Positions 25,929 to 48,714 of a stretch of 64,000 bases of DNA are shown here, piece after piece. The first letter of the stretch is position 1; each line of letters begins with the position of its first letter. A program made the translations under genes and the position numbers. Source of the stretch: Nitrospirales bacterium. Lineage in GTDB: Bacteria > Nitrospirota > Nitrospiria > Nitrospirales > UBA8639. The notes under the pieces were generated by a model that was not told the origin of the DNA, ran no database searches, and saw only the letters and a program-made list of their open reading frames with translations. The stretch spans positions 800,001-864,000 of the forward strand of contig CBDCWC010000003.1 of NCBI GenBank assembly GCA_965223295.1, given 5' to 3'.

Positions 25929-26756
25929 TTACAATCCACGTTGCCGATCAGTTTGAGCAACAGTATAGAGTTCAACTTGTTCAAGTAAGGTCGCACGAAT
26001 ATCATGCAGCTCCGATCGAGTCGGATTTTCTTGAATGCTCTGAGAAATCGTAGCCATGGCGTCGTACCAAAATCCTGCCTTGGCAAATAGTTTGGTCGCA
26101 TCGAGCGGATTCGCCTGCCTGACGTTTTCAGCCATCCCCTCTGGCAATCGATCCATTTCCAAGGTGCCGCCAGCAACAATATCTTGGGAGCGTTGAGCAG
26201 AATCAGGAATTAACGAGACAAACCATTGATAGGTTTTTCCTGTTTCAAACTTTAGGTCATACTCGGTTAAGGAAAGAATCTGAACGCCTGGTTCTAGAGG
26301 AGACGGCAACGGCACCTCAAGAAGAGGCTCTACTCCATCTCCTTCAACCACCGTAAATTCCAATGGGTACGACGTGGTTTTGGAAAGATACCAGACTAAC
26401 TGGGGCTGTTCTTCAGACGTCATCGCCACATGATCCGGAACGAGCGCATACAGAACAGGCACCTCGGACGGTCCCCGCGTTCCTCCACCGACCCGCCCCC
26501 CTGGCGCACCACGAGACGGCGGCTGATACAACGGCTCCGAAGGTTTTGAAGAAGCTACTGATTGATCATCAACGACTCGTACCAAAGCAAGTCCCTTCGG
26601 GTCTTGCTTCTCTTCAACCGTCTTTTCTGTAGACTGCGCAGATAACTCAGACGATCGCTGAGTTTGATCCTCCTCTCCTAATGCGAAAGTACTCAGCCCA
26701 ACTGTCAGTCCAATCACGGCCATTCCCCAGATTGCGCATAAGATCTTCATGATCAA
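25929..26756 (-). CDS. DUF928 domain protein with signal peptide
   Basis: PP.RGAPGGRVGGGTRG, ALVP, T..EQP.L.WY, L..GKTYQWFVS, A.AGFWYDA, LLEQV.L. Confidence 0.85.
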   Translation of the reverse strand: MIMKILCAIWGMAVIGLTVGLSTFALGEEDQTQRSSELSAQSTEKTVEEKQDPKGLALVRVVDDQSVASSKPSEPLYQPPSRGAPGGRVGGGTRGPSEVPVLYALVPDHVAMTSEEQPQLVWYLSKTTSYPLEFTVVEGDGVEPLLEVPLPSPLEPGVQILSLTEYDLKFETGKTYQWFVSLIPDSAQRSQDIVAGGTLEMDRLPEGMAENVRQANPLDATKLFAKAGFWYDAMATISQSIQENPTRSELHDIRATLLEQVELYTVAQTDRQRGL

Positions 26757-26846
26757 TTCTCCTTTTTTCCTCTTAGAGAAGCTATGCCTCCTAGAGTAAA
26801 GGTCGATTTGCTGGCCTATAGAGATGAATTCCTCATACTAGCTTAA

Positions 26847-26862
26847 CGCAAACTTTATTCCA
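26847..26862 (-). promoter_or_regulatory. sigma54 promoter for the DUF928 gene
   Basis: Minus strand TGGAataaagtTTGCG, GG-N10-GC. Confidence 0.5.
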
Positions 26863-27144
26863 AAAAGTAAGATGAAGCTTTATCCTGACAATTTCAAGGA
26901 AACGATATATTTTTCAATGAGTTAAAAAACCCGAGGTAAAAACAAGGTTACGTGCTCCAGAGAAAACTGTCTACATCGTGTACTGTTCGTTAATTGAAAA
27001 ACTGGAGCTTTCTCAAAAACCTCCTTGTTCATGATAGTCATGAGGGATGAGAAAACTCTGCAGACATTTTGACCTTATTCATCGTTGTTCCTAGAATACA
27101 GCTCTTCATAGTCATGTTCTTTTCGAGAAAGGACAATCAGACTG

Positions 27145-32055: not shown

Positions 32056-34536
32056 TTATGGGCAAGCCGTCGTAGGCTCACCTGCATGTCCCAGCAGCAG
32101 GGGAGCAATGGATGCCGTGAGTGCTATTGAGCTTTGGAGACCGGCGGAAGCATTGGCCTCGGACGAAAGACTTAGCAAAGGACTGGCTAAGAAAACACTA
32201 GGTCTCGGGGAAAGGCTATCGGCCTTCGAATCCACAAATGTACTGAAATGCCCACCCTGTCCAGCCGCGCAACGCGCACTATAGAGCGCATTCACCGGAA
32301 CAGCTTCCTCTGGCAGTGGAGCTATGGTGCCGCTCAAATTTTGAATAGGGGCTTGAATGTCAACAATGCCATCGCCGCCAAAACGAGAGGTCGCGTCAAT
32401 GGTGCTAAGGGAGTCAAAAAGAATGGCTGAACTTGCCACAAAGGTGACATCCCCACCGTCTCCGACATCGGCACTCGTGTCAACCCGACTATTTTGAGCC
32501 ACGATAAATTCCGGATCTATGTTAATACTTCCTGCCTCCCCCGAGCCCTCCTGAACACGGCTAGTAACCTGAGTATCTGTCAATTGAATAAGCCTTCCAG
32601 CATCGAGTTTAATATTTCCACCCACTGCATTATCAGCTTGTGTCGTCACAGTACTGTCGTCTATGAAAATAGTGCCATTGGCTTTGAGGTCTATGTTTCC
32701 GGCATTTCCTGCATCGCTTGCAACCGAAATACTTTCCGCCGTAACAGAGGTTCCATTAGTGAAAGTAAGATTTCCAGCCGAGGCAATGATATTTCCCCCA
32801 ACTCCGGATCCTGTAGTACGAGTTACTAAAATTCCTTTATCGACCACCAGACGATCGTCTGCCACGATATTAATATCCCCTCCTGGTCCCCCTTCAGTGC
32901 TTGAGGCACCGATACTCGTCTGTCCAGTTGGAAATACCGGATTCGGTACCCCAGTTAGGAATATATCCTTTGCAAAAATGGAAATGTTACCTGCGGCTCC
33001 ACCCCTAAACGTAAAATTATCAATTGAGGCAGTTTCGCGAAGGTCAAAAGTGCCTCGAAGAATAACCGTGATATTCCCTGCATTCCCTTCTCCTATAGCC
33101 GTGACAGCTTGGAGGTTTGCTGGGCCCCTCATCGTAAAATTATTGGCCTGAATTAGGATATCACCAGCATTTCCACTTCCAAAAAGGGCATTGGCTCCGA
33201 TGAACCCACCCCCTTGAGTACGTCCAATAACTGAAATATCGTTCTCGATCATCACATTGATGTTCCCTGCCTGTCCTGTTGCTCGATCAGTAACTGTAGT
33301 CAGCAGACCTCCAAGCATTTGCAAATTATTGGCTTGTAACTGGATATTCCCAGAATTTCCGTCGCCTAAAGTCAGGCTGGAAATTCCAAATATATCACTT
33401 CCTGGTCCAGATCTATCCATGTTAAACAAAACATCATCAGCATGTACTTCTAGGTTGCCGGCATTACCAACTGCGAAAGTTGCGGTACGAAGAACACTGT
33501 TACGAATCTCCAAATTTCCACCAGCCATTACTCTGATATATCTCCCATTTCTTGAACCATTGACATCCGCCGATACCTTTGACTCATTATCTAAAACAAC
33601 ATTCTTAGAAACTTCAATGTCAATACCGTTCTCGGAAAACTCCGCCATGACAGCACTAGAAGATCCAGCGGCATTGGCGGAGATTTGAGAACCCTCCACC
33701 ATGAGGCTACCGCCCCGAACCACAATGGTTCCCCCTGACTCACCGTCAACATTGAGCGAAGCACCACTAGTTAATTCGATCTGTCCGAGTTGTGATGCAT
33801 TTACCTGAATGTTGGTCCCCCCATCCACTAAAACTTCCCCAAGAGAAGTTAGACTCACAAGATTAATGTGTCCGTCAGGACTTTTCAGGCTTCCTCCAGA
33901 AAATTCGATATCCCCACCTACTAGCGATAAGACTTCTCCTTCTCCAACGGACAACATGCTGCGATCGACCATTAGAGAGCCCGAGTTAGACTCTAGAAAT
34001 CCAAAGGCTGCAATAGACGCAACGCTTAACAAGGAATCCTGCGCACTCGGGAGGGCGGCGAACTGAACCCCGTCACTAAGCTGTAAATAATCGGCCGTGG
34101 TGAAATGGGTGGCACCAGCCACATTCAATGTGGAATCCTGCCCAAACATCATCCCGGCCGGATTCATGAGGAACAGGTTGGCCTTCCCAAATCCTTCAGT
34201 TTGAATCGTCCCAAGAATGTTAGAGGGATTACCCCCAGTCACGCGGCTGAGAATATTTGACGTTGGCAAACCAGAATCATTCAAGAAGTTGGCGGTATCC
34301 TCCGTTGGAACGTTAAATTCCCCAAAACTATGGAACAGGTTGGAGCCACCTCCAGGCCTAGTCCCACCAGTGATATTATGCATGTTGCCATTTTGGTTCA
34401 CCTGGGTGCCCATAGACCCATCAGGTACGATGACCATCTGAGCCCTGCCGATAGAAAAGAAAGACCAATATAAGGTTAAGAATAAAATTATCACCCTGCA
34501 AAATGTGAGAATATACTTCCCCATGATGGGTCTCAC
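32056..34536 (-). CDS. TpsA: filamentous-haemagglutinin N-terminal domain protein
   Basis: Signal peptide; NLFHSF.EFNV, NILSRVTGG.PS.I.G.I, NLFLMNPAG; G.AGNI.I beta-helix repeats. Confidence 0.9.
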   Translation of the reverse strand: MRPIMGKYILTFCRVIILFLTLYWSFFSIGRAQMVIVPDGSMGTQVNQNGNMHNITGGTRPGGGSNLFHSFGEFNVPTEDTANFLNDSGLPTSNILSRVTGGNPSNILGTIQTEGFGKANLFLMNPAGMMFGQDSTLNVAGATHFTTADYLQLSDGVQFAALPSAQDSLLSVASIAAFGFLESNSGSLMVDRSMLSVGEGEVLSLVGGDIEFSGGSLKSPDGHINLVSLTSLGEVLVDGGTNIQVNASQLGQIELTSGASLNVDGESGGTIVVRGGSLMVEGSQISANAAGSSSAVMAEFSENGIDIEVSKNVVLDNESKVSADVNGSRNGRYIRVMAGGNLEIRNSVLRTATFAVGNAGNLEVHADDVLFNMDRSGPGSDIFGISSLTLGDGNSGNIQLQANNLQMLGGLLTTVTDRATGQAGNINVMIENDISVIGRTQGGGFIGANALFGSGNAGDILIQANNFTMRGPANLQAVTAIGEGNAGNITVILRGTFDLRETASIDNFTFRGGAAGNISIFAKDIFLTGVPNPVFPTGQTSIGASSTEGGPGGDINIVADDRLVVDKGILVTRTTGSGVGGNIIASAGNLTFTNGTSVTAESISVASDAGNAGNIDLKANGTIFIDDSTVTTQADNAVGGNIKLDAGRLIQLTDTQVTSRVQEGSGEAGSINIDPEFIVAQNSRVDTSADVGDGGDVTFVASSAILFDSLSTIDATSRFGGDGIVDIQAPIQNLSGTIAPLPEEAVPVNALYSARCAAGQGGHFSTFVDSKADSLSPRPSVFLASPLLSLSSEANASAGLQSSIALTASIAPLLLGHAGEPTTACP

Positions 34537-34646
34537 TTTTCTGAATTTATATTCAACCCTGAGGACAAATAATTACAAATACTGACTTTGCTCAGATCTG
34601 AACTCATTTTTAGTTTACAAACCATTGGTAGGTCAGCTGTGGTTAC

Positions 34647-35006
34647 CTATTTTGCCAAAGACCATACGGTGCCCTCTTTCTTAATTTTTACCGAATCACC
34701 TATCTTAACACCTTCATAAGGCGGAGTAGGATTTACTAGTCGAATGAAGTTCCCCTCACCATCCTCCAAAGTGTATACAACTTGGGCCTTTTCAACATGG
34801 AGGATTTTAGCTTCATGGCCGTTACTACTTCTAAACTTCCCTCCCCCTCCACACGTGGGACAAAAACATGGATAAGGGCAGGCACCACCATCTTGTTGCG
34901 GTGCCGAAAAACCATCACTTACTGTAACTTCCACGAAGGGCGTTGTACAGCCGGCAAAAAAGAAAGAGAAAACCAATAATGCCATTTTTGTTTGAAAATT
35001 TCTCAT
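34647..35006 (-). CDS. Small lipoprotein with a Cys cluster
   Basis: RBS before ATG 35006; lipobox FAGC; CPYPCFCPTC. Confidence 0.6.
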   Translation of the reverse strand: MRNFQTKMALLVFSFFFAGCTTPFVEVTVSDGFSAPQQDGGACPYPCFCPTCGGGGKFRSSNGHEAKILHVEKAQVVYTLEDGEGNFIRLVNPTPPYEGVKIGDSVKIKKEGTVWSLAK

Positions 35007-35186
35007 AAAGTCCCCCTTTTCAATATTTAAATTAGGCATTTTTTAAAAACGTGAATAGGCATTTGACATATGATATTAAAGCATCTACACGCAAACTCTT
35101 TCGTAGGTTTTCACTCCATCCTGTTTTGTTTTAAAACTAATTAGTTTTTATCGTACATCATTGACAAACAGCACTTTCTGGCTTAT

Positions 35187-36083
35187 TCAGCCACAAAGGC
35201 CATATATCCCAGCAGATTTTTCATAGAGTTTAATAAGTTCTTTGACAAAAGCTTGTCGGGAAGTACCTTCAGCAGAACCTTTCTTTAAGTTTTCTAACAC
35301 CTCTTTAGCTTCACAACTGCCGCTTTTGGCCAAGCTGATTAATCCCCATCGAATTTCATCCCTTTCACTTTGCTTCTTAACATCCCATTCTTTTCGCTTC
35401 TGATCTTCCTGTAGTAATCTACACTGGTCCGTTGTATTCTTCTGCTTACTATGGCCTTGTGGAAGCAAAGATTCTGGTAGACACCTAATAATTTCGCGAG
35501 AAATACTTAACGTTGATGGTGGGGCTGGAGCAAGGGGATATGTCTGTCCTTGAGGGTCAGACCGACTTTGAGATTTTATGCTCGTCACACGTTCTTGCTT
35601 CCGTGTGTTTTCCAAATATCCTAGTGCTAAAAATCCAGCTTTCCTCGCTGACGGGTTAGAGTTGGTATTTTCTTTTAAAAAACTTATGATTAAACCCTTT
35701 GCATTTTCAAGCCCCAGCACACCCAGAGTAAGAACCGCCCGTGAACAAAAAGTATGCCTAGCCTTGGTTATTCTTCTTGCGGCTATGCCTGATTTTCCAC
35801 AATCGGATTGAAACTGTTTTATAAGTTCCCCTACGGTTGCCTTGTCTTTAAATTTTTCCCTTATTTCAGATACAGGCGGATTTCCTCGAAACCCGTTCAA
35901 GTATTTTTCTTGAGAGAAGAATTTTTCAACAATTTTTTGAGGAGAACCATGGCTAGAGTTAGACCGTGTATATGTCTGACTCTCTTTTGGCAGAACCTTA
36001 CTTACAGTCATCCCTAAGATCAAAATTATTATAAAAATTACCAACCTTGATTTTCGTCTATTCATAACTGTTCTACCATCCAA
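35187..36083 (-). CDS. Exported hypothetical protein with HEAT-like helices
   Basis: N-terminal TM/signal; RAVLTLGVLG, RKAGFLALGYL, LISLAKSG..EA.EVL..L. Confidence 0.6.
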   Translation of the reverse strand: MDGRTVMNRRKSRLVIFIIILILGMTVSKVLPKESQTYTRSNSSHGSPQKIVEKFFSQEKYLNGFRGNPPVSEIREKFKDKATVGELIKQFQSDCGKSGIAARRITKARHTFCSRAVLTLGVLGLENAKGLIISFLKENTNSNPSARKAGFLALGYLENTRKQERVTSIKSQSRSDPQGQTYPLAPAPPSTLSISREIIRCLPESLLPQGHSKQKNTTDQCRLLQEDQKRKEWDVKKQSERDEIRWGLISLAKSGSCEAKEVLENLKKGSAEGTSRQAFVKELIKLYEKSAGIYGLCG

Positions 36084-36118
36084 TTAAAAAGTTCTTAATT
36101 TTTCAAATTGCGTCTTTT

Positions 36119-36940
36119 CTATGGACGGCCTCCACGCAATTTGAAACACTCTGGGCCATTTAGTTTTGTTTGTTCCTCCCACACGTAATCTGTCATGACG
36201 GCACTGGGATCCCTATTCAGTGCATTTGGTGTATGGTGCAAACCTTTGGTGTGTCCGAATTCATGAAGCCAGAGAATGCCTTGTAGCTGAGTATCTCTTG
36301 CGTAAGGGTCATTTTTGTCTTCTTCGAGGTTCCTCCTGATAGCAATAGCCTGACCCAACCATGGAAATTGGGCACACGCGACCCAAGTACCTAGGCTATT
36401 TTCACAGAAGTTTATATGTCTAACTAACTTAATCCCATCGTTTGTAGGATTAAGTCCCCATACAGCCTCTAAATCGTTCTGTGAACAAATAACTCCGTCT
36501 GCCAGACAATTGAGTGGATCATCTGAAGCATTTCCACGACTGGATTCTGAAAAACTGAAGGTGGGAGGCCAAGCGTCTCTCGCGTTGGTACTAGGAGCAT
36601 TCCCCAGTTTAAATTCGATTTTACATCCGAAATCCTTGTACATGTCGGTAAATTTTTTGGCACACTGTGAATCAACATTACCTTCACCACATTTGGCTAC
36701 CAATGAAGCGTAGTCTAAAATTTCCGTCGCCTCCTTACTATCAATTTTGGTGTCTTTATCTTTAAACCGACTAAGACTGATTTCCTCCTTAATCAAAGAT
36801 TGTTCCGAATAGGGAAGTGCCTTTGGCGTCACTTCCCCTTTCGGAGATGTCTGAACGTTTACCTTCACACAGCCAACCATACCGATCATGGCTAAAGATA
36901 AAGAAAATAGTATTAAGCCAACCCAGTGATTAGGTTTCAT
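36119..36940 (-). CDS. Lipoprotein zinc metallopeptidase (metzincin-like)
   Basis: Lipobox MVGC; HEFGHTKGLHH = HExxHxxGxxH; downstream AVM Met-turn. Confidence 0.75.
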   Translation of the reverse strand: MKPNHWVGLILFSLSLAMIGMVGCVKVNVQTSPKGEVTPKALPYSEQSLIKEEISLSRFKDKDTKIDSKEATEILDYASLVAKCGEGNVDSQCAKKFTDMYKDFGCKIEFKLGNAPSTNARDAWPPTFSFSESSRGNASDDPLNCLADGVICSQNDLEAVWGLNPTNDGIKLVRHINFCENSLGTWVACAQFPWLGQAIAIRRNLEEDKNDPYARDTQLQGILWLHEFGHTKGLHHTPNALNRDPSAVMTDYVWEEQTKLNGPECFKLRGGRP

Positions 36941-37101
36941 TAAACTCCCTCTTTTCTTTCTCCTACCACAACAATGAAGTAAATCATTACATAGGACTAA
37001 AACCGACTTAATAGGCCATTATCTAGCCACACCGGTTATATGTAGTAATTCAATCTTGTGTTTTTAGCATTATACTTAGCATTTAATCTTGAGACCTGCC
37101 G

Positions 37102-37293
37102 TCAATCGGAACCAGCCGCATGAGGTATTGTTATGCGACAAGGAATGAACGGTATCAATGAGCCTTGGCATTCCTTTATCACAGGATTACTGTTTCCACG
37201 AGTTAATTGCACCCGTGCCTTGACACAACCAGTTGCACTAAGGCTGATCACGAGTAGAAGAAATAATAAGAGATAGGTGGTGTTGAACTTCAT
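37102..37293 (-). CDS. 63-aa lipoprotein
   Basis: Signal peptide ending SATGC; two further Cys. Confidence 0.55.
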   Translation of the reverse strand: MKFNTTYLLLFLLLVISLSATGCVKARVQLTRGNSNPVIKECQGSLIPFIPCRITIPHAAGSD

Positions 37294-37640
37294 AGTGTTT
37301 CCGTTCGATTCTTTTTCTCTACAAGTGGATCATGACTCCTAGTAATAGCCAGACCATTTAGCCTGAAAGTCGGTTCCCATCAGGGATGTTCCATTTTTTC
37401 AAGGCGACCTCTAACCCTAACAAACTGGAGAAAGAGAAATGGGGGATAAACTATGATTCCGTGATGAGCAATACCAGGAATGTAAAAATAACTGATTATT
37501 AGTATTGCTGTGCTTGAACAACTTCTGTTCCCTTTTTTCTCTCACACCCTTTTTCTTTCTCTTCTTTTATAATCCGCCCTCCTTCCCAGGTTATCTTATT
37601 TGGCGGATTATTACTCCACCCATCTAACAATTGCAATTAG

Positions 37641-37656
37641 AGCAATTGTAATGCCG
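37641..37656 (-). promoter_or_regulatory. sigma54 promoter heading the lipoprotein/TpsA run
   Basis: Minus strand CGGCATtacaaTTGCT, GG-N10-GC. Confidence 0.6.
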
Positions 37657-37752
37657 TCTTAAAGAAACCCTCACTACTTGGCCATAGCCTTTATTCAAAG
37701 GGCTCTGTTGGGCCTGAGAGTTATTGTGGGTGTGATGGGGATACTCTCAATT

Positions 37753-37791
37753 TGTATCTCATTAGATACGTTTTGTATCGAATTGGATACG
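37753..37791. promoter_or_regulatory. Tandem palindromes, candidate enhancer (UAS)
   Basis: tGTATCtcattaGATACg and tGTATCgaattgGATACg, 21-bp period, ~100-135 bp upstream of the sigma54 motif. Confidence 0.6.
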
Positions 37792-38096
37792 AAAGATGAA
37801 AATTTTTCTGATTTGTGCCTACAAGCGCTTAAAACTGAAGAAAGATCTGAAGAACGAATTTAGAGGGTCACTCGTATGGATCTCCGCTAACTACCTACGG
37901 AGCTGACAAGAGTAGTTCAGGAAAATGACGAGAGGAGGAATTGCAAGAGCAGTGGCTCCGTTTGGAAATTATTGGAAAAGGTTTCTCTCTCATCACAACT
38001 ATTCGGCCCTTTATAGAACGAGCCTTCGAAGGGACGGTGGAGTGTTGCAATGTTCGAGTTAAACGTTTTACGGTCATTTCAACTATGCAGGAAGGC

Positions 38097-38123
38097 TTGG
38101 AGTCCCGTTTTCACGGGAATGAT
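38097..38123. repeat. REP-like hairpin (GTCATTCCCG-type)
   Basis: ttggagtcccgttttcacgggaatgat, nearly identical to 11828-11854. Confidence 0.6.
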
Positions 38124-38128
38124 ATCTA

Positions 38129-39697
38129 CTAGAGGGATTCGTAAACTTCGTCGCGCAATTCTTTGACGTGGATATGATAGCGATTGATTTTTTTAATGAG
38201 GCCCTGGCGGCTGATGCCCAGTTGCTCGGCTGTCCGGACTTGATTGAATTGGCAGGCCATCAAGGTATCTTTGATGATTTGCTCCTCCAGCTCACCTAAA
38301 ATCTCCGGTAGGCTTTTTCGTTCCTGACCCTCACTCGCTGCAGGGCCCTTCGCCAAACGTTTTTTGATAGCCGGATCAAGAGCCTCTTCGCTGATGCTGG
38401 CCGCCCGTACCATGACTGCTAAGCGCTTCATTTCATTACTAAGCTGGCGCATATTACCAGGCCAATCATACTCCGCAAGACGGCGCATCGCTTCAGACGT
38501 CAGTTTTTTGGGAGGTTTGCCCATGTCCTTACAATGTTGATCCAGAAAAAAGTTGGCCAGCAGAGGAATATCAGTCGGAATCTCTCGTAAGGCTGGTGTC
38601 TGAATATGGACGACTTTTAGTCGAAAGTAGAGATCTTCGCGAAAGGTTCCCTGTTTGATGGCTGCTTCTAGATTCGCATTGGTTGCCGCAACCACACGAA
38701 TGCTAATAGGAATGGGCCTTCGTTCCCCTACCGGCTCGACCACCCGTTCTTGCAACACCCGCAACACCTTGGCTTGTGCTTTGAGGCCTAAGTCTCCGAT
38801 TTCATCCAGAAACAAGGTGCCTTTGTGCGCTTGCTCAAATTTCCCTATTCGCGCTTCCACTCCTGTAGCGGTGCCTCGGCCAATCCCAAACAATTCACTT
38901 TCGATAAGATTTTCTGGCAAGGCTGCACAGTTAATAGCCACGAACGGGTTACGGGCTCTCGGACTCGAATAATGTATGGCCTTGGCCACCAATTCCTTGC
39001 CGGTTCCATTTTCTCCGGTAATCAGGACATCGACCGAACTATCATGGATTTGATCGATCACGCGGACGACCCGCTGGATGGGGAGGCTGTTCCCCATGAG
39101 GTTTTGTGTGGAGAACCGCCCTTCGACTTCTTTCCACAACTGGGCATTTTCCTTTTCTAATTGTGCTCGCTCCTGTTCCAGTTGCTTCATTTGCTGCCGT
39201 TTCTGCAAAGGCATGGCGATTTCATCTACAAAGGCTTGGGCATTACGTTCATCCTTGGGCGAAAAGGTGCGGCCCTTTTTATTGACGGCCTCGAACACAC
39301 CAAAGATTTCTCCTGTAGGCAATTGTAGAGGAAGCGCCAACAATGTCCGAGTGCGCCGTTTGGTGTGCAAATCAATCCCTGAGAAAAACCGGTCATCTGA
39401 TTGTACATCATGGATGTTGAGAGTTTTTCCAGATGAGACGCAATGCCCCGCAATACCTAATCGAGCGTCCAGTCGCAACACCTTCCCATCCTCCTGTAGA
39501 GGAAACCATAACTCTTGTCGGGCCTGATCTAAGAGAAAAACGCTGGCCATTTCGGCGTCTAACCGCCGACACGCTTCGTCCCGTATGAGCTTGAAAAAGA
39601 CTCGACAGCTGGGTTCTTCGTTGAGACGCATGATAAATGGGCTGATAGAGGGTCTGGATTCTGATGAACGCTCTACTGTTTGAGATCTAGTGGGCAT
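38129..39697 (-). CDS. GAF-domain sigma54-dependent activator (bEBP)
   Basis: GAF; GENGTGKE, ESELFG..RGTATG (GAFTGA variant), LFLDEIG, FREDLYFRL, WPGN.R, Fis-type HTH. Confidence 0.92.
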   Translation of the reverse strand: MPTRSQTVERSSESRPSISPFIMRLNEEPSCRVFFKLIRDEACRRLDAEMASVFLLDQARQELWFPLQEDGKVLRLDARLGIAGHCVSSGKTLNIHDVQSDDRFFSGIDLHTKRRTRTLLALPLQLPTGEIFGVFEAVNKKGRTFSPKDERNAQAFVDEIAMPLQKRQQMKQLEQERAQLEKENAQLWKEVEGRFSTQNLMGNSLPIQRVVRVIDQIHDSSVDVLITGENGTGKELVAKAIHYSSPRARNPFVAINCAALPENLIESELFGIGRGTATGVEARIGKFEQAHKGTLFLDEIGDLGLKAQAKVLRVLQERVVEPVGERRPIPISIRVVAATNANLEAAIKQGTFREDLYFRLKVVHIQTPALREIPTDIPLLANFFLDQHCKDMGKPPKKLTSEAMRRLAEYDWPGNMRQLSNEMKRLAVMVRAASISEEALDPAIKKRLAKGPAASEGQERKSLPEILGELEEQIIKDTLMACQFNQVRTAEQLGISRQGLIKKINRYHIHVKELRDEVYESL

Positions 39698-39830
39698 AGG
39701 ACTTTGTCATCTCTTTGTTATGACGAACCATGTATTGCTTAGAACTGAAAATTTGCCTTTTAGCATCTACTAGATTTTTTCAATGATGACGTCAACGACA
39801 TGACCAGTAGTCAGTTACTCAAATTATAGA

Positions 39831-39846
39831 AGCACATATTATGCCA
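39831..39846 (-). promoter_or_regulatory. Possible sigma54 promoter upstream of the activator gene
   Basis: Minus strand TGGCATaatatgTGCT, GG-N10-GC. Confidence 0.4.
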
Positions 39847-39907
39847 CAAAACAGTTTCTTATTTTGCCAATTCTTACGGATAACTTCCACCATAGACAAA
39901 AAAATCT

Positions 39908-41845
39908 TCATTTCATACATTTCTCGCCTGCTGTTGAGTACAGTCGATAGACCGGAAGGTTAGTAGTTTTACCTCTCAACAGGATCGGGCCCATTTCTGT
40001 GAGTTGCCATGGATGCGATCCAAGGCATTGCTTTGTGGTTTCACCGATGAGAATACGACATACCTTGTTGGAATCTTCCGTTTTCCAGGCATCTTTGTCC
40101 AGATTTTCTAAACGAGCAGCAACATTCACCGAATCGCCTATGGTGGTAAATTTCAGGCGTTCTTCACTCCCTAAGCTCCCCACCATGACTGGTCCGGTAC
40201 TAATTCCCACTCGCATCCTTATCAACCCTAAACCCTGTTGTTGCCAGATCTGATTGAGCCGAATCATTTCTTGTTCCATTGCCAAACTACATTGCACCGC
40301 CTGTCTGGCATGATAGTTAATCTGTTCATCTGTTTGGTCCTTGGACAACACTCCGAAACCGGCTTTAATCATATCCCCATAATAGTCATCAATTAAACCC
40401 CCATGGGCGACAATAATCTTCACCATCATATCCAGGTATATATTAAGCCATTCCCATAACTCATGAGAAGGCATCTGTTCCGCCACAGTGGTAAATCCCT
40501 CCAAGTCTGTAAACATCGTTGATACTACCAGTGTGTGTGGGCGCCATCGTCCCTCTTCCAAAAATTGTGCACGTTGTTTCCAAACAGCGGCAGCCACCTG
40601 AGGGGAAACATGCCGTGAAAATAATACCATGAGCGCTCGACGATCTTTTTGCTCTCGATTGGAAATCAAGGCTGTAATAACCATGCCATTCACGACCCAT
40701 CCTAAAGCAGGCGGGACCCACGGAATCCACCAGTGATAGCTCATCGCTACTGCCACGATACTCCCCAGCACCAGTAATCCCAACAGAACTGCTACCGAAA
40801 ACCGCCAGGCACCCCGCACCCAGACCCCGACAATGACACCCCCCAACACCCACAGACCAATCCATCCAGCTTCCTGCCATTCGGTGAGCGTGGCAATAGA
40901 GACCACGCCTGTCCGCACATCACGAATGAGTTGCCACACAATATGGCCATGCAGTTCAGCACCAGAAATGTGTGGGCAACGCATAAGTCGGTCGCATTGT
41001 GAGGTGTAGAAGTAATCTTTGACGCCTTCAGATACGACTCCTAGAATGATAATGTGATCGTGGATGAATTCTGGTTGTACCTTTCCTTCTAACACGGTTT
41101 GCAATGAAAAAGTGGGGAACGTATGGGCTCCGCGATCCAAGTTCAATAAGAACTGATAGCCTCGGGCATCGGCTTGCGCATAACTCCCATCTTGCGATTC
41201 GAAGGGCTGAAAGACTGCCTGCCCCAGCTTCAGCCAAAGAGGGTTGTGTTCGGCAGGTTTTGGCATCACGCCATCATGTTCAAGGTATTTCAACGCAAGC
41301 AGAAAGGACAACGAGCGAGAGGAAGTTGTTCCGTCATCTAAAAATAGTAACCCACGCCTGACAATGCCATCTGGATCCACGACCATATCACTAAAACCCA
41401 GCCGCTCCGTGTCGTGCAAGATAGCCGGCCCAGGAATCCCACCTTGCTCCGGCTTACCAAATTTCTTGACTATCAGAATTTCAGGATACTGCGAGAGAAC
41501 CTGATTCAACACAGACCGACCCGGTGGAACTTCTAAATCGCGATAGATGTCGACACCGATTACTCGCGGGCCATGCTCATGAATTTGAGTGAGTGCCTTG
41601 GCAAGAATTTCATCCGAGATAGGCCAATGGCCTATTCGACGAATATCTTGATCCGTTATTGTCACCAGCGTAATGGGTGGCTTTTCGCGAATTTGGTGAG
41701 GACGAAGTCGCAAAGACCAGTCGTAGGCTTGAAGTTCCAAACTTTCCAGAAGACCTTGGCCTCGCAGACCCATGAGGCCCAGAAAGACTAGAACAGAAAT
41801 AAGGCCTATCTGAAATGCTTGAGAACGAAAAAAAGGATGGTCCAC
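39908..41845 (-). CDS. CHASE2-domain class III adenylate/guanylate cyclase
   Basis: CHASE2 (LELQAYD, WP.SD, VIGVDIYRD, D.DG.VRR, G.E.H), three TMs, FTDLEGFT, GD, RMRVGISTG, TIGDSVNVAARLE. Confidence 0.92.
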   Translation of the reverse strand: MDHPFFRSQAFQIGLISVLVFLGLMGLRGQGLLESLELQAYDWSLRLRPHQIREKPPITLVTITDQDIRRIGHWPISDEILAKALTQIHEHGPRVIGVDIYRDLEVPPGRSVLNQVLSQYPEILIVKKFGKPEQGGIPGPAILHDTERLGFSDMVVDPDGIVRRGLLFLDDGTTSSRSLSFLLALKYLEHDGVMPKPAEHNPLWLKLGQAVFQPFESQDGSYAQADARGYQFLLNLDRGAHTFPTFSLQTVLEGKVQPEFIHDHIIILGVVSEGVKDYFYTSQCDRLMRCPHISGAELHGHIVWQLIRDVRTGVVSIATLTEWQEAGWIGLWVLGGVIVGVWVRGAWRFSVAVLLGLLVLGSIVAVAMSYHWWIPWVPPALGWVVNGMVITALISNREQKDRRALMVLFSRHVSPQVAAAVWKQRAQFLEEGRWRPHTLVVSTMFTDLEGFTTVAEQMPSHELWEWLNIYLDMMVKIIVAHGGLIDDYYGDMIKAGFGVLSKDQTDEQINYHARQAVQCSLAMEQEMIRLNQIWQQQGLGLIRMRVGISTGPVMVGSLGSEERLKFTTIGDSVNVAARLENLDKDAWKTEDSNKVCRILIGETTKQCLGSHPWQLTEMGPILLRGKTTNLPVYRLYSTAGEKCMK

Positions 41846-41988
41846 AGGTATCCCCTTAACACTTCCACTGAAAGAGAAGAGGAAGAAACGGGGATAAATC
41901 TTTTGTTATCTTACGATCAACAGTGAGACGGTTTTTCAATTTTGAGACAAGAAGAGGGAACAACCTGTTCAAACCTCAAGACAGAATT

Positions 41989-43269
41989 TCAGGAAGAGAC
42001 CTTTTCCAATGGCAGATCAGCTGACCCCTCCATTGGCAAATGGATATGAAAAATAGCTCCAACATTCAGTTCACTTTCGACCGCAATGACCCCCGAATGG
42101 GCTTCGATCACATCCTTCACAATTTTCGTTCCTAACCCCGTTCCACCCCGCTTTCGACTTCTCACCCTTGAGGTAAATATCGTGTCTCGAATTTCAGCTG
42201 GCATTCCACGTCCGGTATCGCTGACGGACACATGAACCGTCTTTCCTGAGGATTCTATTTCCCCGTTAATCGTAATTGAGCCGCCTGGCGAAACTTCGGC
42301 AATCGCGTTATTGACCAAATTATAAAATGCATTGAACAACCGCGATTCATCAGCATAGATCTCTGGTAATTCCGAAATTCCCTCATGCAGAAGGGTGATA
42401 TCCTTGCCCTGAGCGACCAGCATCAACGTATCAAAAACCGAAGCCACAACATGCTGAAGCTTACAAGGAGCAAACTGTGGTGGACTCGTCAATCCCTTTA
42501 CGCAATCTGCGATTTCTTTGACTCGCTCTTGAATCCGTTTGGTGTTGTTCGCCACCATCCCAATGACCTCTAGGCATGTCTGATGAGTAGCCTGGCCTTT
42601 GTTCGGATCAAACGTTGGAAGATCGGCAAAGACTTCATTGAGCTCATCTTTCAGAAGCGACGTCCCACATAACACCGGCATCAGCATATTTTTCACATCA
42701 TGGCCAATGTTTCCGAGTATTCGTGCAACCTCTGCTAACTTCGCTTCCTGAAATAACCTTGCCTGTTCAATGGAAAGCGCAGTGAAGGCGCCTATGATGG
42801 TGAGAATGGCAACATCGTCATGATTTAACTGGCCATCCCGTTTGTTCATCACCTCCAAGACGCCAATTGAATGTCCCTCCCAACGTTTGAGGGGAACGGC
42901 TATCATGTCCTGAGTATGAAATCCCGTGAGGTGATCGATTTCGGGGAAATGGCGACGATCTGCTTTAGCATCCTTGCTGACAATTGGCATTTCTGTAGCA
43001 AAGACCGTCCCAGCAATGCCATGAGTCCAAGGAAATGCTGTGCCGATTTTAGGTGTTCGATCTCCAATGACATGCGAAAATACTAATTCTTTGGTTTCTG
43101 AATTGGCCAACAACACACACCCGGCTTGGCAATTGAGGACATCTAAAGCAATCTTTAACCCTTGTTCGACCAAATCTTCGACACTCAGGTGTTGAAAAAG
43201 TGCTTCACTAATTTTGCGAGCCGCTTCAAGCTCCCGTTCTTTGCGACTCAATTGGGTGGAAGGATTCAT
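41989..43269 (-). CDS. Soluble GAF-domain histidine kinase
   Basis: GAF; H-box GHDVKN; NLVNNAI, DTGRGM, GTGLG. Confidence 0.9.
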   Translation of the reverse strand: MNPSTQLSRKERELEAARKISEALFQHLSVEDLVEQGLKIALDVLNCQAGCVLLANSETKELVFSHVIGDRTPKIGTAFPWTHGIAGTVFATEMPIVSKDAKADRRHFPEIDHLTGFHTQDMIAVPLKRWEGHSIGVLEVMNKRDGQLNHDDVAILTIIGAFTALSIEQARLFQEAKLAEVARILGNIGHDVKNMLMPVLCGTSLLKDELNEVFADLPTFDPNKGQATHQTCLEVIGMVANNTKRIQERVKEIADCVKGLTSPPQFAPCKLQHVVASVFDTLMLVAQGKDITLLHEGISELPEIYADESRLFNAFYNLVNNAIAEVSPGGSITINGEIESSGKTVHVSVSDTGRGMPAEIRDTIFTSRVRSRKRGGTGLGTKIVKDVIEAHSGVIAVESELNVGAIFHIHLPMEGSADLPLEKVSS

Positions 43270-43417
43270 GTCTCACTCACATATTAGAATCAATCTCCAT
43301 CATGCTTGTATCGTTGGTAAGCCCCTTATGATGATGGAGACTAAAAATGTTAGCAAATAGTTACAATAAAATCCTCCAACAACTTTTATTTGATCATACG
43401 ACAGACAAAAAATAATT

Positions 43418-44212
43418 TCATGAAAATTCTATGTCTTGGCCTTCCTCCAAAACGGTCACTCTTTCAATTTCAAGGGCAGCAATTTCTTCTATAATTTGGG
43501 CTCGTACCGTAGGTTTCATGTGGTAGACAAAAACCGGCAGATCGGGTTTTCCAATTTTTCTGTATTCCTGGGCAAGCAGTTTTGGGGTAAGATGCTTACT
43601 TTGAATGGCAATATCCATCATGGCATCCGGAAAAGAAACTTCAATGAAAATGCCCTGAAGATTAGACGTATGGGCTGCGACCTGCCAGATTTCTTCTGTA
43701 AGATGGGTATCCCCACTATAAATCCAAGCAGCGGTGTCATCACGAATGACATAGCCAACAGTTTCTACGGTGTGATTGACCTGCACCGGAGTCACACGGA
43801 TACCACCTGGCACCGAGATCTCTTTTTGGGCTTCCAACTCTCGAGCATGCAAAATGGCATGACGCGAACCTTGACGATGGAAAAATTTTGGAAAGACCAA
43901 ATCATTAAAAACATGCTTTCGCAACCCGTGAATCACTGAGGGCAAACCTGCTACAACTACTTGATGATCTACCAAGTCCGAAAGATTATCCGCCAACTGT
44001 GGGATTCCCTTAATATGATCGTGGTGAAGGTGGGAAAGGAGAATATGTTTTACCCGTCGCTGTTCCTCGAAGGTAAGACAAGAGGCTAGGGTTCCAGCAT
44101 CCACCATGACCTCTCCATTGACAAGAAATCCCACACTCCGGCAAAGCATTGAGCCAGTCGGTCCCTTCACGCACAAGTCAGACCCATGCGATCCAAGGAC
44201 TCTGATTTTCAC
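43418..44212 (-). CDS. Class II (metallo-beta-lactamase fold) 3',5'-cyclic nucleotide phosphodiesterase
   Basis: KIRVLGSHG, DAG, SHLHHDH, HVFN..VFP.F, VNHTV, SGDT, EVSFP, HLTP, YHMKP. Confidence 0.85.
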   Translation of the reverse strand: MKIRVLGSHGSDLCVKGPTGSMLCRSVGFLVNGEVMVDAGTLASCLTFEEQRRVKHILLSHLHHDHIKGIPQLADNLSDLVDHQVVVAGLPSVIHGLRKHVFNDLVFPKFFHRQGSRHAILHARELEAQKEISVPGGIRVTPVQVNHTVETVGYVIRDDTAAWIYSGDTHLTEEIWQVAAHTSNLQGIFIEVSFPDAMMDIAIQSKHLTPKLLAQEYRKIGKPDLPVFVYHMKPTVRAQIIEEIAALEIERVTVLEEGQDIEFS

Positions 44213-44530
44213 GAACTTTGGCTTTCAAGTAATAATATTTGTTTACTCTTAATCATGGAACTTCGCCTTATACTTCTAAAGGTTCGCTACCAAACTTGAC
44301 TGGCCATCAAACAAGACAACAGCAACTCTAAATTGTTGAGTAGGATACATAGAGCAACATTCTCATAAAAACGCCCATGTCTCGGAATTGATAAGCTCAT
44401 TGCTTCTTCGGGGTTATACAAAAATATTGTTTCAACACCACTTGATGAATCTTTCAAAAAACATCATGCAAAAAAAACTGAATAAATACAACTTAGACCA
44501 TCCCTCAGGTTTTCTCTCAACATCAATCTA

Positions 44531-44721
44531 GGGTCTGTTGAAAAAAGCCGCCAGCGGCGTTCTCGCCATTTTCCCGTGCTCACATACTGCCAGTATGCTC
44601 CGCGCGAAAAAATGGCTGTGGCTTTGCTGGACGGACTGTTTTGAACCGACTCGACGCTGCTGATCACCAAGAGCTTCCTGGCGAAATATGGCCATTGATA
44701 TCATCATTATTCAACAGTCCC
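44531..44721. mobile_element. Two-module MITE-like repeat
   Basis: 12-bp termini gggtctgttgaa / ttcaacagtccc (1 mismatch). Confidence 0.75.
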
Positions 44722-44749
44722 ATCTACTGTACATTTCGCTGAAAATAAT

Positions 44750-44782
44750 AAAAAAGCCTCCTGTCTCATGAGACAGGAGGCT
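44750..44782 (-). terminator. Terminator after tRNA-Asn
   Basis: Palindrome agcctcctgtctcatgagacaggaggct with a T-run on the minus strand. Confidence 0.8.
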
Positions 44783-44794
44783 CTTAAGAGATAT

Positions 44795-44870
44795 TGGCTC
44801 CCCGGGCAGGACTCGAACCTGCGACCATTCGGTTAACAGCCGAACGCTCTACCAACTGAGCTACCGAGGA
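44795..44870 (-). tRNA. tRNA-Asn (GTT)
   Basis: Minus strand tcctcggtagctcagttggtagagcgttcggctGTTaaccgaatggtcgcaggttcgagtcctgcccggggagCCA, 76 nt. Confidence 0.97.
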
Positions 44871-44974
44871 ACAAAGTGTTTATATAAATAAATGGTTCGT
44901 GTTTTTGATGATTCTAGCCCGACTGTCGATTTTCTTCAAGAACAAAGAAAAGGTTTTTGATTCTTTTTTAGGTA

Positions 44975-45238
44975 CTAAAATTGAAAATCGGCCGAATCTT
45001 CTTCCCCTTCATCTGCTTCTGAGGCCCCTCCTTCTGAGAGGTTCACGTAATGCCGCGCCCATGATAAGTAGATATTGGCACTGTCTTTCATGGCATCAGC
45101 GCCGTTTAGAAGCTTACTGACAACCTCAGGATCTCCACCGCCCATTTCCATTTCTCGAGCCTTAACCTCAAGCGAAGCATGGAAATTCGTCATGTGATCA
45201 GTGAGAGTATCCATTTGCTTACGGAGATCATCATTCAT
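44975..45238 (-). CDS. Small acidic helical hypothetical protein
   Basis: AAGGGG RBS then MNDDLRKQ...; acidic tail. Confidence 0.65.
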   Translation of the reverse strand: MNDDLRKQMDTLTDHMTNFHASLEVKAREMEMGGGDPEVVSKLLNGADAMKDSANIYLSWARHYVNLSEGGASEADEGEEDSADFQF

Positions 45239-45370: not shown

Positions 45371-45649
45371 TTATCCTTGATAGGCTTGCCCTAGCTCCGC
45401 AGATTCTCCAGCCTGATCCAATAACGTCCCATCAGAATTCACGGCAACCATATCAATAGCCTGATGTTTGGCCGCATCACAGACCACCTTACACAATTCA
45501 CATCCCTTGCACCGATCAATGGCGACTTCCGCCACCATCTTGTCTGAATTCAGATCCAGACAGTTCGCTTCCGGACAATACATGATGCAGAGTCGGCAGC
45601 CTTTTTTCGCAACACATTTGTCATCCGTCACTTGAGCAACATTATACAT
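45371..45649 (-). CDS. porE: Pyruvate:ferredoxin oxidoreductase ferredoxin-like subunit
   Basis: C..KKGCRLCIMYCP, CKGCELC..VC. Confidence 0.8.
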   Translation of the reverse strand: MYNVAQVTDDKCVAKKGCRLCIMYCPEANCLDLNSDKMVAEVAIDRCKGCELCKVVCDAAKHQAIDMVAVNSDGTLLDQAGESAELGQAYQG

Positions 45650-45694
45650 CTATCTTTGTTCCTTTATCTTTGGTCCTTCGCTGAAAACCACTGT

Positions 45695-46399
45695 TTACGC
45701 CGCAGCGGTTTCTCCAACCATCACTTCGACGTTGTTTTTCTCCGCCCATTCAGCTCCCATTTCATAGGCTCGTTTCACAGTCTCCAAATTCTTTTTTAAT
45801 AACATTTCTTTCTTAGCAAATTTTTTCTTAATGGCTTCATCTAACGTTGCGGTTCCACCAGAAGCCACAAATTTTTTCCCAAATCGTTCTTGCAAGGCTA
45901 AATCTAAGCCATTCATTGAGACACACTTGGTAATCCCAGACACCGAACCAATCATGGTCATGTTGGTTGCCAACTCAGTTCCTGCGATGTCCATAGCAAT
46001 GTTTGTCCCAGGAATATTAAAGACCGACACATTCATATCTTTGAGGTGCTTCACATCTTCATCCGCCAACAGAGGCATGTCGGTATTGATAATCACCAAA
46101 CCACCCTCTTTGATACCTGAGTAAAAAGGCATGGTATAGCTCTTCCCCATCGTGATCACTTGAGGATGGAACACTTGAATGACATCGGGAAATACCAGTT
46201 CCCCACGATCGTAGATTTTTCTCAATCCGATTCGGCAATAGCTTTCGGCCGGTGCCATGCGCTTTTCAGCACCAAAGAATGGATTGGAAATAGCAAATTT
46301 ACCATCTTTTGAAGCCGCCATAGCCATGACATGGGCGGCAGTCACCGCACCCTGTCCGCCAAGACCAGACATTCGTATGTTGATTCGACGTAATATCAT
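45695..46399 (-). CDS. porC: Pyruvate:ferredoxin oxidoreductase gamma subunit
   Basis: GLGGQGAVT, PFFGAEKRMAP. Confidence 0.85.
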   Translation of the reverse strand: MILRRINIRMSGLGGQGAVTAAHVMAMAASKDGKFAISNPFFGAEKRMAPAESYCRIGLRKIYDRGELVFPDVIQVFHPQVITMGKSYTMPFYSGIKEGGLVIINTDMPLLADEDVKHLKDMNVSVFNIPGTNIAMDIAGTELATNMTMIGSVSGITKCVSMNGLDLALQERFGKKFVASGGTATLDEAIKKKFAKKEMLLKKNLETVKRAYEMGAEWAEKNNVEVMVGETAAA

Positions 46400-46428
46400 A
46401 ATATTGTTCCTCTCACATATCCGGTTGC

Positions 46429-47337
46429 TTAAGCGTTTTGCGCAGCCAATTGCCTTTTCGCCTCGGCTTTTCGTTCTTTTTCTTTGGCCGCTAATTCTGC
46501 TAACAACTCTTTTGCTGGCTCACTGACAAATTCTTTGTACGCAAACCGTTCAGAAGGCTTTTCAGAGTCCCGCATTTCCTGCAACCCTTCCATACTATTC
46601 TTCCCAATTTCCAAAATACAGGGAGTGTAGAGTTGAAGGTAAGTTGGGCCAATTTCCCGCGCGACATGAATTGCATTCTTAATGACTTTTTCCACAAGGT
46701 TTGGCTTACTCACAGTACAATTCACGACATAGTGACATCCCGATTCACGTGCAATTTCTGGAAGTCGAACTTTTTCAAATGACTTCCCAACAGGAGCCAT
46801 TTTTGCGACAAATCCTTTTTGCATGAGCCCACTTTCCTGCCCCCCAGTATTGGCATACAACTCATTGTCAAAACAAATCGTCGTAAACTTCTCTTGCCTG
46901 AACCAAGCTTGAAGTGTCATGTCCAATCCGATATCCACCGTGGCCCCATCTCCAGCCAACACCACCACATCCTTCGTCCGGTCAGGAAAACGCACACTCA
47001 ACGCTCGCTTCAACCCCGAGGCAATGGCATTCTGGTTGCCAAACAAGGAATGAATGTTATGAACGGCTACATGGGGAAACACTAAACTGGTACAGCCTGT
47101 AGAACCAACCATGACTGTATCTTCAGGGTTAGGGAGCGACGCTAAAATATAACGAAATGCCATGGATTCAGGACAGCCTGCACACAATGAATGCTCTTCA
47201 ATGAGCTCCTTGGCATTTCCGATGTCTTTCCACCCCCGTGTTTCATTACCAAACGTGGCTCGTTTGACAAGATCTTGATATTCGACAGGCATAATATCAA
47301 ACATTTCTTCGGCTATTTTTATGCGTTCTTTGCTCAT
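46429..47337 (-). CDS. porB: Pyruvate:ferredoxin oxidoreductase beta subunit
   Basis: LCAGCPE, TPP motif GDG...DNELYANTGGQ. Confidence 0.88.
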   Translation of the reverse strand: MSKERIKIAEEMFDIMPVEYQDLVKRATFGNETRGWKDIGNAKELIEEHSLCAGCPESMAFRYILASLPNPEDTVMVGSTGCTSLVFPHVAVHNIHSLFGNQNAIASGLKRALSVRFPDRTKDVVVLAGDGATVDIGLDMTLQAWFRQEKFTTICFDNELYANTGGQESGLMQKGFVAKMAPVGKSFEKVRLPEIARESGCHYVVNCTVSKPNLVEKVIKNAIHVAREIGPTYLQLYTPCILEIGKNSMEGLQEMRDSEKPSERFAYKEFVSEPAKELLAELAAKEKERKAEAKRQLAAQNA

Positions 47338-47389
47338 AATCGATCTCCTTACGAAGAGGTTAGGCAGACAGGCTCAATGCAACACCCTC

Positions 47390-48601: not shown

Positions 48602-48714
48602 GTCAAGACCTCCTTCTTTAATGCTTCAGGTGAATGATGCTCAAAAGTATTTTCTCATATTCTAATCTATCGCTCTTTCTTGCGATAGTAGGCGGAAGAA
48701 CCATTGCTTCCCGA

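Follow-up and report, generated by a model that had tools for sequence, protein, structure and literature searches.

A block of four co-oriented genes in a 64,000-nt stretch of Nitrospirales DNA (positions 800,001 to 864,000 of contig CBDCWC010000003.1, assembly GCA_965223295.1; hereafter the window, whose numbering is used unless a contig or locus is named) is predicted to encode a receptor-cyclase second-messenger module, a reading that we consider on balance probable. The block spans 38129..44212 on the minus strand and comprises genes for a class II-type 3',5'-cyclic-nucleotide phosphodiesterase (PDE) of the metallo-beta-lactamase fold (43418..44212, 264 amino acids (aa)), a cytoplasmic GAF histidine kinase with a variant NK..L...DV motif (41989..43269, 426 aa), a CHASE2 receptor joined to a class III nucleotidyl cyclase with an Asp-Thr pair (39908..41845, 645 aa), and an enhancer-binding-type activator with GAF, AAA+, and helix-turn-helix (HTH) domains, a full NK..F...DE motif, and the L1 loop GTATGV (38129..39697, 522 aa). 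The open reading frames (ORFs) lie exactly at the coordinates and in the orientation given in a preliminary description of this DNA; Pfam confirms the four assignments, and NCBIfam agrees on the class of each protein. Close homologs carry the source names Nitrospirales or marine Nitrospira.

In the proposed scheme, an extracytoplasmic signal would lead the membrane CHASE2 cyclase to make a 3',5'-cyclic nucleotide, which the class II-type phosphodiesterase would remove. Two cytoplasmic proteins, the activator and the kinase, would sense the nucleotide via PDE/CyaB-type GAF domains. Ligand binding would release or block the ATPase of the activator, which would probably act at -24/-12 (sigma-54) promoters of genes for secreted or surface proteins (DUF928 proteins, lipoproteins, two-partner-secretion (TPS) exoproteins and also, in a single relative, the phosphodiesterase), while the kinase would signal to a receiver protein whose gene lies elsewhere in the genome. 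Five parts of this scheme are inferred: that the GAFs bind a ligand, which nucleotide it is, whether it activates or inhibits, that sigma-54 is required, and which genes are targeted. The preliminary description had suggested that the four genes form a closed circuit. That they are a linked unit is borne out, since the cyclase is the only one of class III found in the genome and the linkage is kept in relatives. The circuit is not closed, because CHASE2 is an outward-facing, extracytoplasmic receptor and the activator appears tied to DUF928 and two-partner-secretion genes in relatives.

To our knowledge, bacterial cyclic AMP (cAMP) and cyclic GMP (cGMP) reach transcription almost only via CRP-family proteins, and GAF domains that sense nucleotides are known in cyclases, in phosphodiesterases, and in a single diguanylate cyclase. 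If the scheme is true, AAA+ activators and histidine kinases that are gated by GAFs would be two new output routes for cyclic nucleoside monophosphates (cNMPs). We found no description of a cNMP-gated GAF activator or kinase in the open-access full texts searched, and the four genes probably represent an undescribed second-messenger pathway.

Two GAF domains related to cyclic-nucleotide sensors

The GAF domain of the activator was recognized by Pfam as GAF (2.1e-11) and that of the kinase as GAF_2 (1.8e-14). The motifs previously quoted for them are present in the translations (NKKGRTFSPKDE in the activator, NKRDGQLNHDDV in the kinase), as are the GIAG, D.RF/RH, ID..T...T, and PL positions in both domains, and these matches are far above chance. 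In the NK..F...DE motif of the activator, N139, K140, F145, and D149 are invariant across 28 aligned orthologs.

When searched in isolation against the PDB, the activator GAF matched CyaB2 first (1ykd, 5.1e-21), followed by the GAF of the HD-GYP protein 4mcw (7.9e-17) and PDE2A GAF-B (4.5e-16), then PDE5, PDE10, Lcd1, and PDE6 in that order. The isolated kinase GAF matched PDE2A GAF-B (1mc0, 2.1e-15) and Lcd1 (4.2e-13), then PDE5 and CyaB2. For both domains, nearly all PDB sequence matches are cNMP-type GAFs, and these comparisons support the domain class well, with a cNMP as the predicted ligand. A structure model and fold search were made for the activator GAF. The AlphaFold model, built from 18 orthologs, has a predicted local distance difference test score (pLDDT) of 84 and a predicted TM-score (pTM) of 0.80. 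In a Foldseek search of the PDB, each of the 30 best-ranked chains listed is a GAF of a PDE, CyaB2, Lcd1, or 4mcw; TM-scores against cNMP-type GAFs are 0.63-0.82 (normalized by query length), and the GAFs of the Aquifex activators Nlh1 and Nlh2 first appear at ranks 45-48 with 16-18% identity. As modeled, the activator GAF is closest to cNMP-binding GAFs.

Within its own genome, the activator GAF finds only itself and the kinase GAF by phmmer. The kinase GAF has one other genome match (1.9e-16), a GAF-GAF protein whose C-terminus looks ANTAR-like by eye and which lacks the NKFDE motif; it is encoded at C3:1908774-1910138, approximately 7 kb from rpoN.

Catalytic residues of the cyclase and the phosphodiesterase

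The cyclase matches Pfam CHASE2 (1.4e-54) and Guanylate_cyc (PF00211, 1.5e-16), and it is the sole match in the genome of 3,784,838 bases to PF00211, the one cyclase class searched for. Aligned with CyaB, Cya2, and CyaC, it retains both the Asp residues that bind metal and the Asn/Arg pair of the transition state (FTDLEGFT, YGDMI, and VNVAARLE). The first base-specifying residue is Asp (IDD, compared with IDK in Pseudomonas aeruginosa CyaB, IDE in Synechocystis Cya2, and VDK in Spirulina CyaC) and the second is Thr (FTTIG, compared with FTAIG in CyaC). According to PMC4215837, these positions hold Lys followed by Asp (or Thr) in adenylyl cyclases, whereas in guanylyl cyclases Glu is followed by Cys, Gly, Thr, or His; with Asp where Lys or Glu is expected, the Asp-Thr pair fits the rule for neither class. 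All 11 CHASE2 cyclases linked to the activator keep this pair, as do 99 of the 121 nearest cyclase homologs, the more distant of which include variants with Asn, Glu, or Lys. This clade represents a substrate class whose product has apparently never been measured, and neither cAMP nor cGMP can be taken for granted as the product. An acidic first specifying residue would be chemically nearer to the guanylyl type. Because this residue is acidic and the activator GAF lacks the Arg that reads adenine in CyaB2, we lean slightly towards a guanine nucleotide or another non-cAMP product. Two ORFs with CRP-type cNMP_binding domains occur elsewhere in the genome; the CRP independence that the preliminary description assigned to the activator is a putative trait.

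The position of this Arg (R291 of CyaB2) varies within the activator family: by pattern match, 31 of the 87 members have Arg, 17 Met, and 12 Gly. Arg-less activator GAFs are paired with Asp-type cyclases in 11/11 cases. The second activator copy of genome G102 (locus L112) has an Arg-bearing GAF, and the last gene of its cluster encodes a CHASE2 cyclase of the Lys type (GTIDKYIGD). Two Acidobacteria genomes (L002 and L003), also with Arg-bearing GAFs, have one unlinked PF00211 gene each, an FHA-like-cyclase ORF of the Lys-Thr type (QKYIGD and YTALGD). The Arg status of the GAF and the Lys/Asp type of the cyclase would thus co-vary; with 11 cases against three, from few independent lineages, we take this as a lead rather than a finding.

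A PilZ domain (PF07238) is present in P0326 and P0347, both closely homologous to the cyclase domain of the Asp type, which hints at cross-talk between this cyclase clade and cyclic di-GMP (c-di-GMP).

The 264-aa protein is predicted to be a class II-type 3',5'-cyclic-nucleotide phosphodiesterase: it matches Pfam Lactamase_B_2 (4.1e-15) and PDEase_II (PF02112, 2.8e-13), the latter with 50.1 bits against a cut-off of 23.7, and its orthologs are named 3',5'-cyclic-nucleotide phosphodiesterase in the source annotation. Its only PDB sequence match is yeast PDE1 (4ojv, 1.9e-07). The HxHxDH motifs of the two align (shlhhdhikg and THPHLDHISG), as do later His, Asp, and His positions.

The activator keeps its partners through rearrangement

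Within the order, 14 of 121 genomes, from four of 23 genera, have an ortholog of the activator. A sample of the phylum yielded them in 11 of 401 genomes and four of 162 genera, none outside the family already found. More distant members of the activator family are present in Tectomicrobia, Binatia, and Acidobacteria. A contig scan with generic AAA+ peptide patterns mostly returned unrelated activators; L002 and L003 are full-length family members and L005 is a divergent one.

Linkage was counted at 15 loci from 13 relatives. A homologous CHASE2 cyclase lies beside the activator at 10 of these, the kinase at five, the phosphodiesterase at four, and at least one of the three at 14; the fifteenth, L112, has a different CHASE2 cyclase 6.8 kb from the activator. 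The arrangements include PDE-cyclase-activator, kinase-cyclase-activator, and convergent or divergent cyclase/activator pairs, with orders and orientations differing between genera. Because linkage survives this variation in gene order, it argues for a functional tie.

The kinase has a HATPase_c domain (4.6e-23) and an H-box, GHDVKNML, in its translation; NCBIfam kinase models align from approximately residue 160, and HisKA was not called by Pfam. As noted before, no receiver domain is encoded in the block, nor was one found in the neighboring ORFs scanned (22.7-55.3 kb of the window). This lack is peculiar to the arrangement in the window, since receivers adjoin the kinase orthologs in relatives. 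In G031 and G040 (loci L098 and L101), a CheY-like receiver of 135-161 aa precedes the kinase ortholog; its best homologs in the genome of the window (57% identity; C3:1245840-1246328 and C2:1637916-1638425) adjoin paralogous kinases. In G084 (L104), an NtrC-type response-regulator activator is encoded directly upstream of kinase-cyclase-activator, and it has an 83%-identical ortholog in the genome of the window (C3:1036887-1038302). Because its orthologs adjoin CheY-like or NtrC-type receivers, the kinase probably signals to a receiver encoded elsewhere in the genome.

The AAA+ domain and adjacent promoter-like elements

Pfam identified Sigma54_activat (PF00158, 2.6e-64), AAA_lid_14, and HTH_8 (4e-10) in the activator, whose best full-length PDB match is NifA (9qq6, 4e-77). 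Walker A (GENGTGKE), Walker B (LFLDEIG), and FREDLYFRL (RxDLxxRL) are present and conserved in the ortholog alignment, and rpoN is present in the genome. The L1 loop reads G[TVI]AT[GD]V in all 87 members of the activator family.

An activator from a Myxococcota genome (L005, 7801-9558) has the L1 loop GVATGV and a GAF without NK..F..DE; the Phe-less loop therefore reaches beyond the family with cNMP-type GAFs.

With a relaxed pattern that has a genome background of 0.053 per kb, a -24/-12-like element was found within 700 bp of the activator gene at 14 of 16 loci. The strict pattern TGGCAC-N5-TTGC is not enriched in the window, where its 7 matches were reached by 17 of 100 shuffles. The element in the window (CGGCATTACAATTGCT, 37641..37656, minus strand) lies approximately 107 bp downstream of two enhancer-like palindromes, GTATC-N6-GATAC, which are 21 bp apart (37754..37790) and 340-380 bp downstream of the activator stop. 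Loci L102 and L104 have the same layout of palindromes and element downstream of the activator orthologs. The first genes behind the element encode a lipoprotein, protease, or TPS protein in the window, L100, and L104, a DUF928 protein in L107, L110, and L111, the phosphodiesterase in L105, and DUF4751 proteins in L112.

The position of the element differs between genera. In genera g4, g5, and g7, it is divergent from the activator and approximately 370-545 bp upstream, mostly with the sequence TGGCAT-N5-TTGCT, and at L107-L111 it is preceded by palindromes of the type GTCTAC-N3-GTAGAC. Palindromes of the GTCTAC type also occur 45-110 bp upstream of the activator start at the two Acidobacteria loci, where no -24/-12 pattern was found near the activator. 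The genome of the window has no GTCTAC-N3-GTAGAC site at up to one mismatch. The window does contain 2-mismatch sites (four seen, approximately 2.4 expected by our own arithmetic), one of which (26969-26983) lies upstream of a minus-strand DUF928 gene (25929-26756, DUF928 5e-34; together 25929..26983); a TGGAAT-N5-TTGC element, found by eye only, is also upstream of this gene (26848-26862). This palindrome and element, for which the DUF928 genes at L107, L110, and L111 gave the lead, are only a hint of a site for the activator.

At three loci of one genus (L098, at approximately 10870-10885; L099; L101), the region 316-436 bp downstream of the activator contains a good -24/-12-like element (e.g., TGGCACTAAGATTGCT) that points back to the activator, with no ORF of at least 45 aa before the 3' end of the activator gene. 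Such a back-pointing element could drive a small RNA, a peptide, or an antisense transcript.

Alternative explanations

Several observations weigh against the proposed scheme, and those that concern the output of the activator center on its L1 loop. It reads GTATGV where GAFTGA is expected, and neither Phe nor Tyr occurs at the central position in any of the 87 family members. Among the 18 AAA+ activator homologs with a loop pattern in the same genome, it is the sole Phe-less one; the other 17 keep Phe, as do 73 of the 76 loops read from 80 unrelated loci. Changes of the central Phe or Thr of GAFTGA mostly abolish activation, as stated in the available parts of PMC3162934 and PMC7175178, and TyrR, DhaR, HupR, and VpsR, which are GAFTGA-defective homologs, are sigma-70 dependent (PMC3162934, in excerpt). 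The module might accordingly be real and its activator act as a sigma-70-type activator or as a repressor, like these proteins, with the adjacent -24/-12 promoters served by others. We regard this as somewhat unlikely. It would suit the two Acidobacteria loci, where palindromes precede the activator's own start and no -24/-12 pattern was found nearby, as well as the enhancer in the window, which is common to 10 other sites of the genome and to genera in which the activator was not found; the promoter beside the gene in the window's genus may be served by another of the genome's approximately 20 activators. However, Thr and the two Gly remain in the loop, which does not vary between phyla, and the rest of the AAA+ domain is intact; a conserved contact fits this better than a decayed one. 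The -24/-12-like elements adjoin the gene at 14 of the 16 loci, and those at L107-L111 follow the same type of palindrome that flanks the Acidobacteria orthologs. A sigma-54 activator role, as the preliminary description had it, is uncertain: the GAFTGA loop that it would call for is replaced, and rpoN and the promoter-like elements are there. If sigma-54 is the partner, the activators could even be the first family of cNMP-gated enhancer-binding proteins, in which a PDE/CyaB-type GAF and an invariant Phe-less loop (G-T/V-A-T-G-V) drive sigma-54 promoters, paired with a large Asp-Thr CHASE2 cyclase clade that makes a non-cAMP nucleotide (cGMP or a rarer one), and in which two insulated cNMP channels control DUF928, CHAT, and two-partner-secretion surface systems. 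Taken as a whole, this extended proposal is unlikely; two insulated channels are conceivable because the GAF and cyclase types co-vary and both pairs occur in G102.

Other points weigh against nucleotide sensing itself and against cooperation of the four genes. The NKFDE motif does mark cNMP-binding GAFs, as the preliminary description held, and the available passages of PMC11977230 and PMC4411481 agree; according to the same passages, its residues are structural and make no contact with the nucleotide. GAF domains generally bind many ligands, and of the six ligand contacts named for CyaB2 GAFb, R291 reads adenine N1 (PMC4411481, in part). Mapped by sequence alignment, two of the six are changed in the activator (N359 to T112 and, at the base-reading position, R291 to M50), D356 is kept as D109, T293 and I308 are conservatively replaced by S52 and L67, and T309, a backbone contact, corresponds to Q68. 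The kinase GAF also lacks the Arg (manual alignment), and its motif keeps only N, K, and D, with Phe changed to Leu and Glu to Val relative to PDE2A. The best structural match of the activator GAF is 4mcw, for which no ligand is named in this analysis. The GAFs might hence bind another small molecule, or serve dimerization or regulation, with the linkage reflecting co-regulation or a shared envelope process. We hold this to be quite improbable, given that cNMP-type GAFs dominate the sequence and fold matches, that the activator GAF finds only the kinase GAF besides itself in the genome, and that the genome's single PF00211 cyclase gene lies between these two genes. The persistence of the linkage despite rearrangement across genera and the co-variation of GAF Arg status with cyclase type (11/11 Asp-type; L112 and the two Acidobacteria Lys-type) also speak against it. 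That the four genes are chance neighbors which do not act together is very improbable. The intergenic gaps calculated from the ORF coordinates are 148, 143, and 210 bp, with which a single transcript is possible. No RNA run was listed for 36000-45000 of the window; the four runs that contain this DNA, of unspecified type and from one study, do so as contigs, which show neither starts nor strand. In none of the 15 relatives' loci, in which the suggested synteny was checked, are all four genes together; the linkage counts also overstate independence, because the loci come from related genomes. Against chance stand the presence of at least one of the three partners near the activator at 15/15 loci and the position of the sole PF00211 cyclase, flanked by apparently the only two PDE-type GAF proteins of the genome.

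A tandem palindrome shared by a wider set of genes

The tandem arrangement seen beside the activator recurs in the genome of the window. Tandem GTATC-N6-GATAC was found at 11 sites compared with none for the reversed control, and palindromes with up to one mismatch are paired with -24/-12-like elements at 15 places, eight of which are tandem pairs. The motif can be written as KTATC-N6-GATAM, repeated after 21-22 bp and located approximately 100-150 bp upstream of the -24/-12-like elements. Sites other than that in the window include C2:325239, C3:227842, C3:387409, C3:1046458, C3:1328768, and C3:1725809. The tandem motif is present in 40 of 61 genomes of the family, in none of the 17 of genus g2, and in five of the seven of genus g3 (including G055 and G076), a genus in which a search at 1e-100 did not find the GAF activator. 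In genus g5, it co-exists with the different palindrome that adjoins the activator.

We considered tandem GTATC-N6-GATAC and its element as the activator's own enhancer and dropped this as a firm assignment, because the motif is common to 11 sites, indicating a wider regulon, and to genera in which the activator was not found. It appears to serve as the enhancer for a large sigma-54 regulon with genes for secreted and signaling proteins. When the recognition helices of the genome's activators were compared, no pairing of an activator with a site emerged.

Comparison with known systems

The activator GAF shares its NK..F...DE, GIAG, ID, and RT positions with Anabaena CyaB1 and CyaB2 (GAF-GAF-PAS-cyclase; cAMP-binding GAF, 1ykd). 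In the CyaB proteins, a bacterial GAF reads the cNMP on the cyclase itself, leading to autoactivation, whereas here the GAFs are on a kinase and an activator, and Arg291 of CyaB2, which faces adenine N1, is replaced by Met50 in the activator. PDE2A GAF-B and the GAF-A domains of PDE5 and PDE6 (all for cGMP), as well as PDE10 GAF-B (cAMP), are among the top fold matches of the activator GAF, and the activator segment AEMASVFLLD resembles AEICSVFLLD of PDE2A. The mammalian enzymes have eukaryotic tandem GAFs that regulate a PDE catalytic domain; the outputs here are bacterial. Leptospira Lcd1 (GAF-GGDEF; 5w10, cAMP-bound), at fold ranks 9-10, is a bacterial protein in which a single GAF links a cNMP to a different output. 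This output is c-di-GMP synthesis, not phosphorylation or transcription.

NifA, NorR, and FhlA have the same GAF-AAA+-HTH layout as the activator but carry GAFTGA; the GAF of the activator is of the PDE/CyaB type and its loop is GTATGV. Their GAF ligands are 2-oxoglutarate (NifA), nitric oxide via iron (NorR), and formate (FhlA). CHASE2 receptors with class III cyclases are known from Sinorhizobium, where CyaD1, CyaD2, and CyaK are Lys-type adenylyl cyclases whose product is read by the CRP-type Clr. As in that system, a CHASE2 cyclase would feed a transcription factor, here with an Asp-Thr pair and GAF readers. The phosphodiesterase has the metallo-beta-lactamase fold and HxHxDH motif of yeast PDE1, a class II enzyme, but it is shorter (264 versus 369 aa), overall similarity is low, and its motif is HLHHDH instead of the HxHLDH of class II PDEs. 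Like TyrR, DhaR, HupR, and VpsR, the activator has a non-canonical L1 loop on an AAA+ domain; the loops of those proteins are deleted or decayed (available text of PMC3162934), whereas that of the activator is full-length, invariant in the family, and near -24/-12-like promoters. An invariant Phe-less loop beside such promoters would offer a direct test of whether the Phe of GAFTGA is indispensable.

Neighboring genes

The block sits between a five-gene 2-oxoacid:ferredoxin oxidoreductase cluster and a surface/secretion region (22680-34536) that encodes an ShlB-type transporter (22680-24467), an OmpA-like ORF, the DUF928 protein, a TPR-CHAT protein (27145-29469), and a TPS exoprotein. The link to DUF928, CHAT, and two-partner secretion could provide a first handle on the signals of CHASE2 receptors. 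The promoter next to the activator in genus g5 has DUF928 as its first gene, and one paper notes a CHASE2/DUF928 neighborhood in Nostoc.

A candidate downstream unit on the minus strand (32056..37293) runs from lipoprotein-like ORFs to the TPS exoprotein. It comprises lipoprotein-like ORFs of 63 aa (37102-37293) and 273 aa (36119-36940), ORFs of 298 and 130 aa, and a rather short exoprotein of 826 aa with a TPS domain (32056-34536, TPS 3.8e-44). The 273-aa ORF has a zinc-protease-type motif (HEFGHxxGLHH) and only sub-threshold metzincin matches in Pfam (Reprolysin_5, 0.0044; Peptidase_M10, 0.011); L104 has a subtilase at the equivalent position. Homologs of the candidate downstream genes follow the activator in L100, L102, and L104. 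Between the CHAT gene and the TPS exoprotein, approximately 2.6 kb (29470-32055) are without an ORF of at least 120 aa; this stretch could be non-coding or the remains of coding sequence in decay.

A simple scan for sigma-70 promoters and terminators gave nothing above shuffles except a strong terminator-like hairpin of 15 pairs with a T run (44752..44785, minus strand), which on the other side of the block stands between the four genes and the oxidoreductase genes upstream of them. The oxidoreductase cluster (45371-49350) consists of a ferredoxin-like ORF, POR gamma, a thiamine pyrophosphate (TPP)-binding ORF, POR_N, and a CO_dh (epsilon-like) ORF, and is presumably of the kind used in the reverse tricarboxylic acid cycle of Nitrospira.

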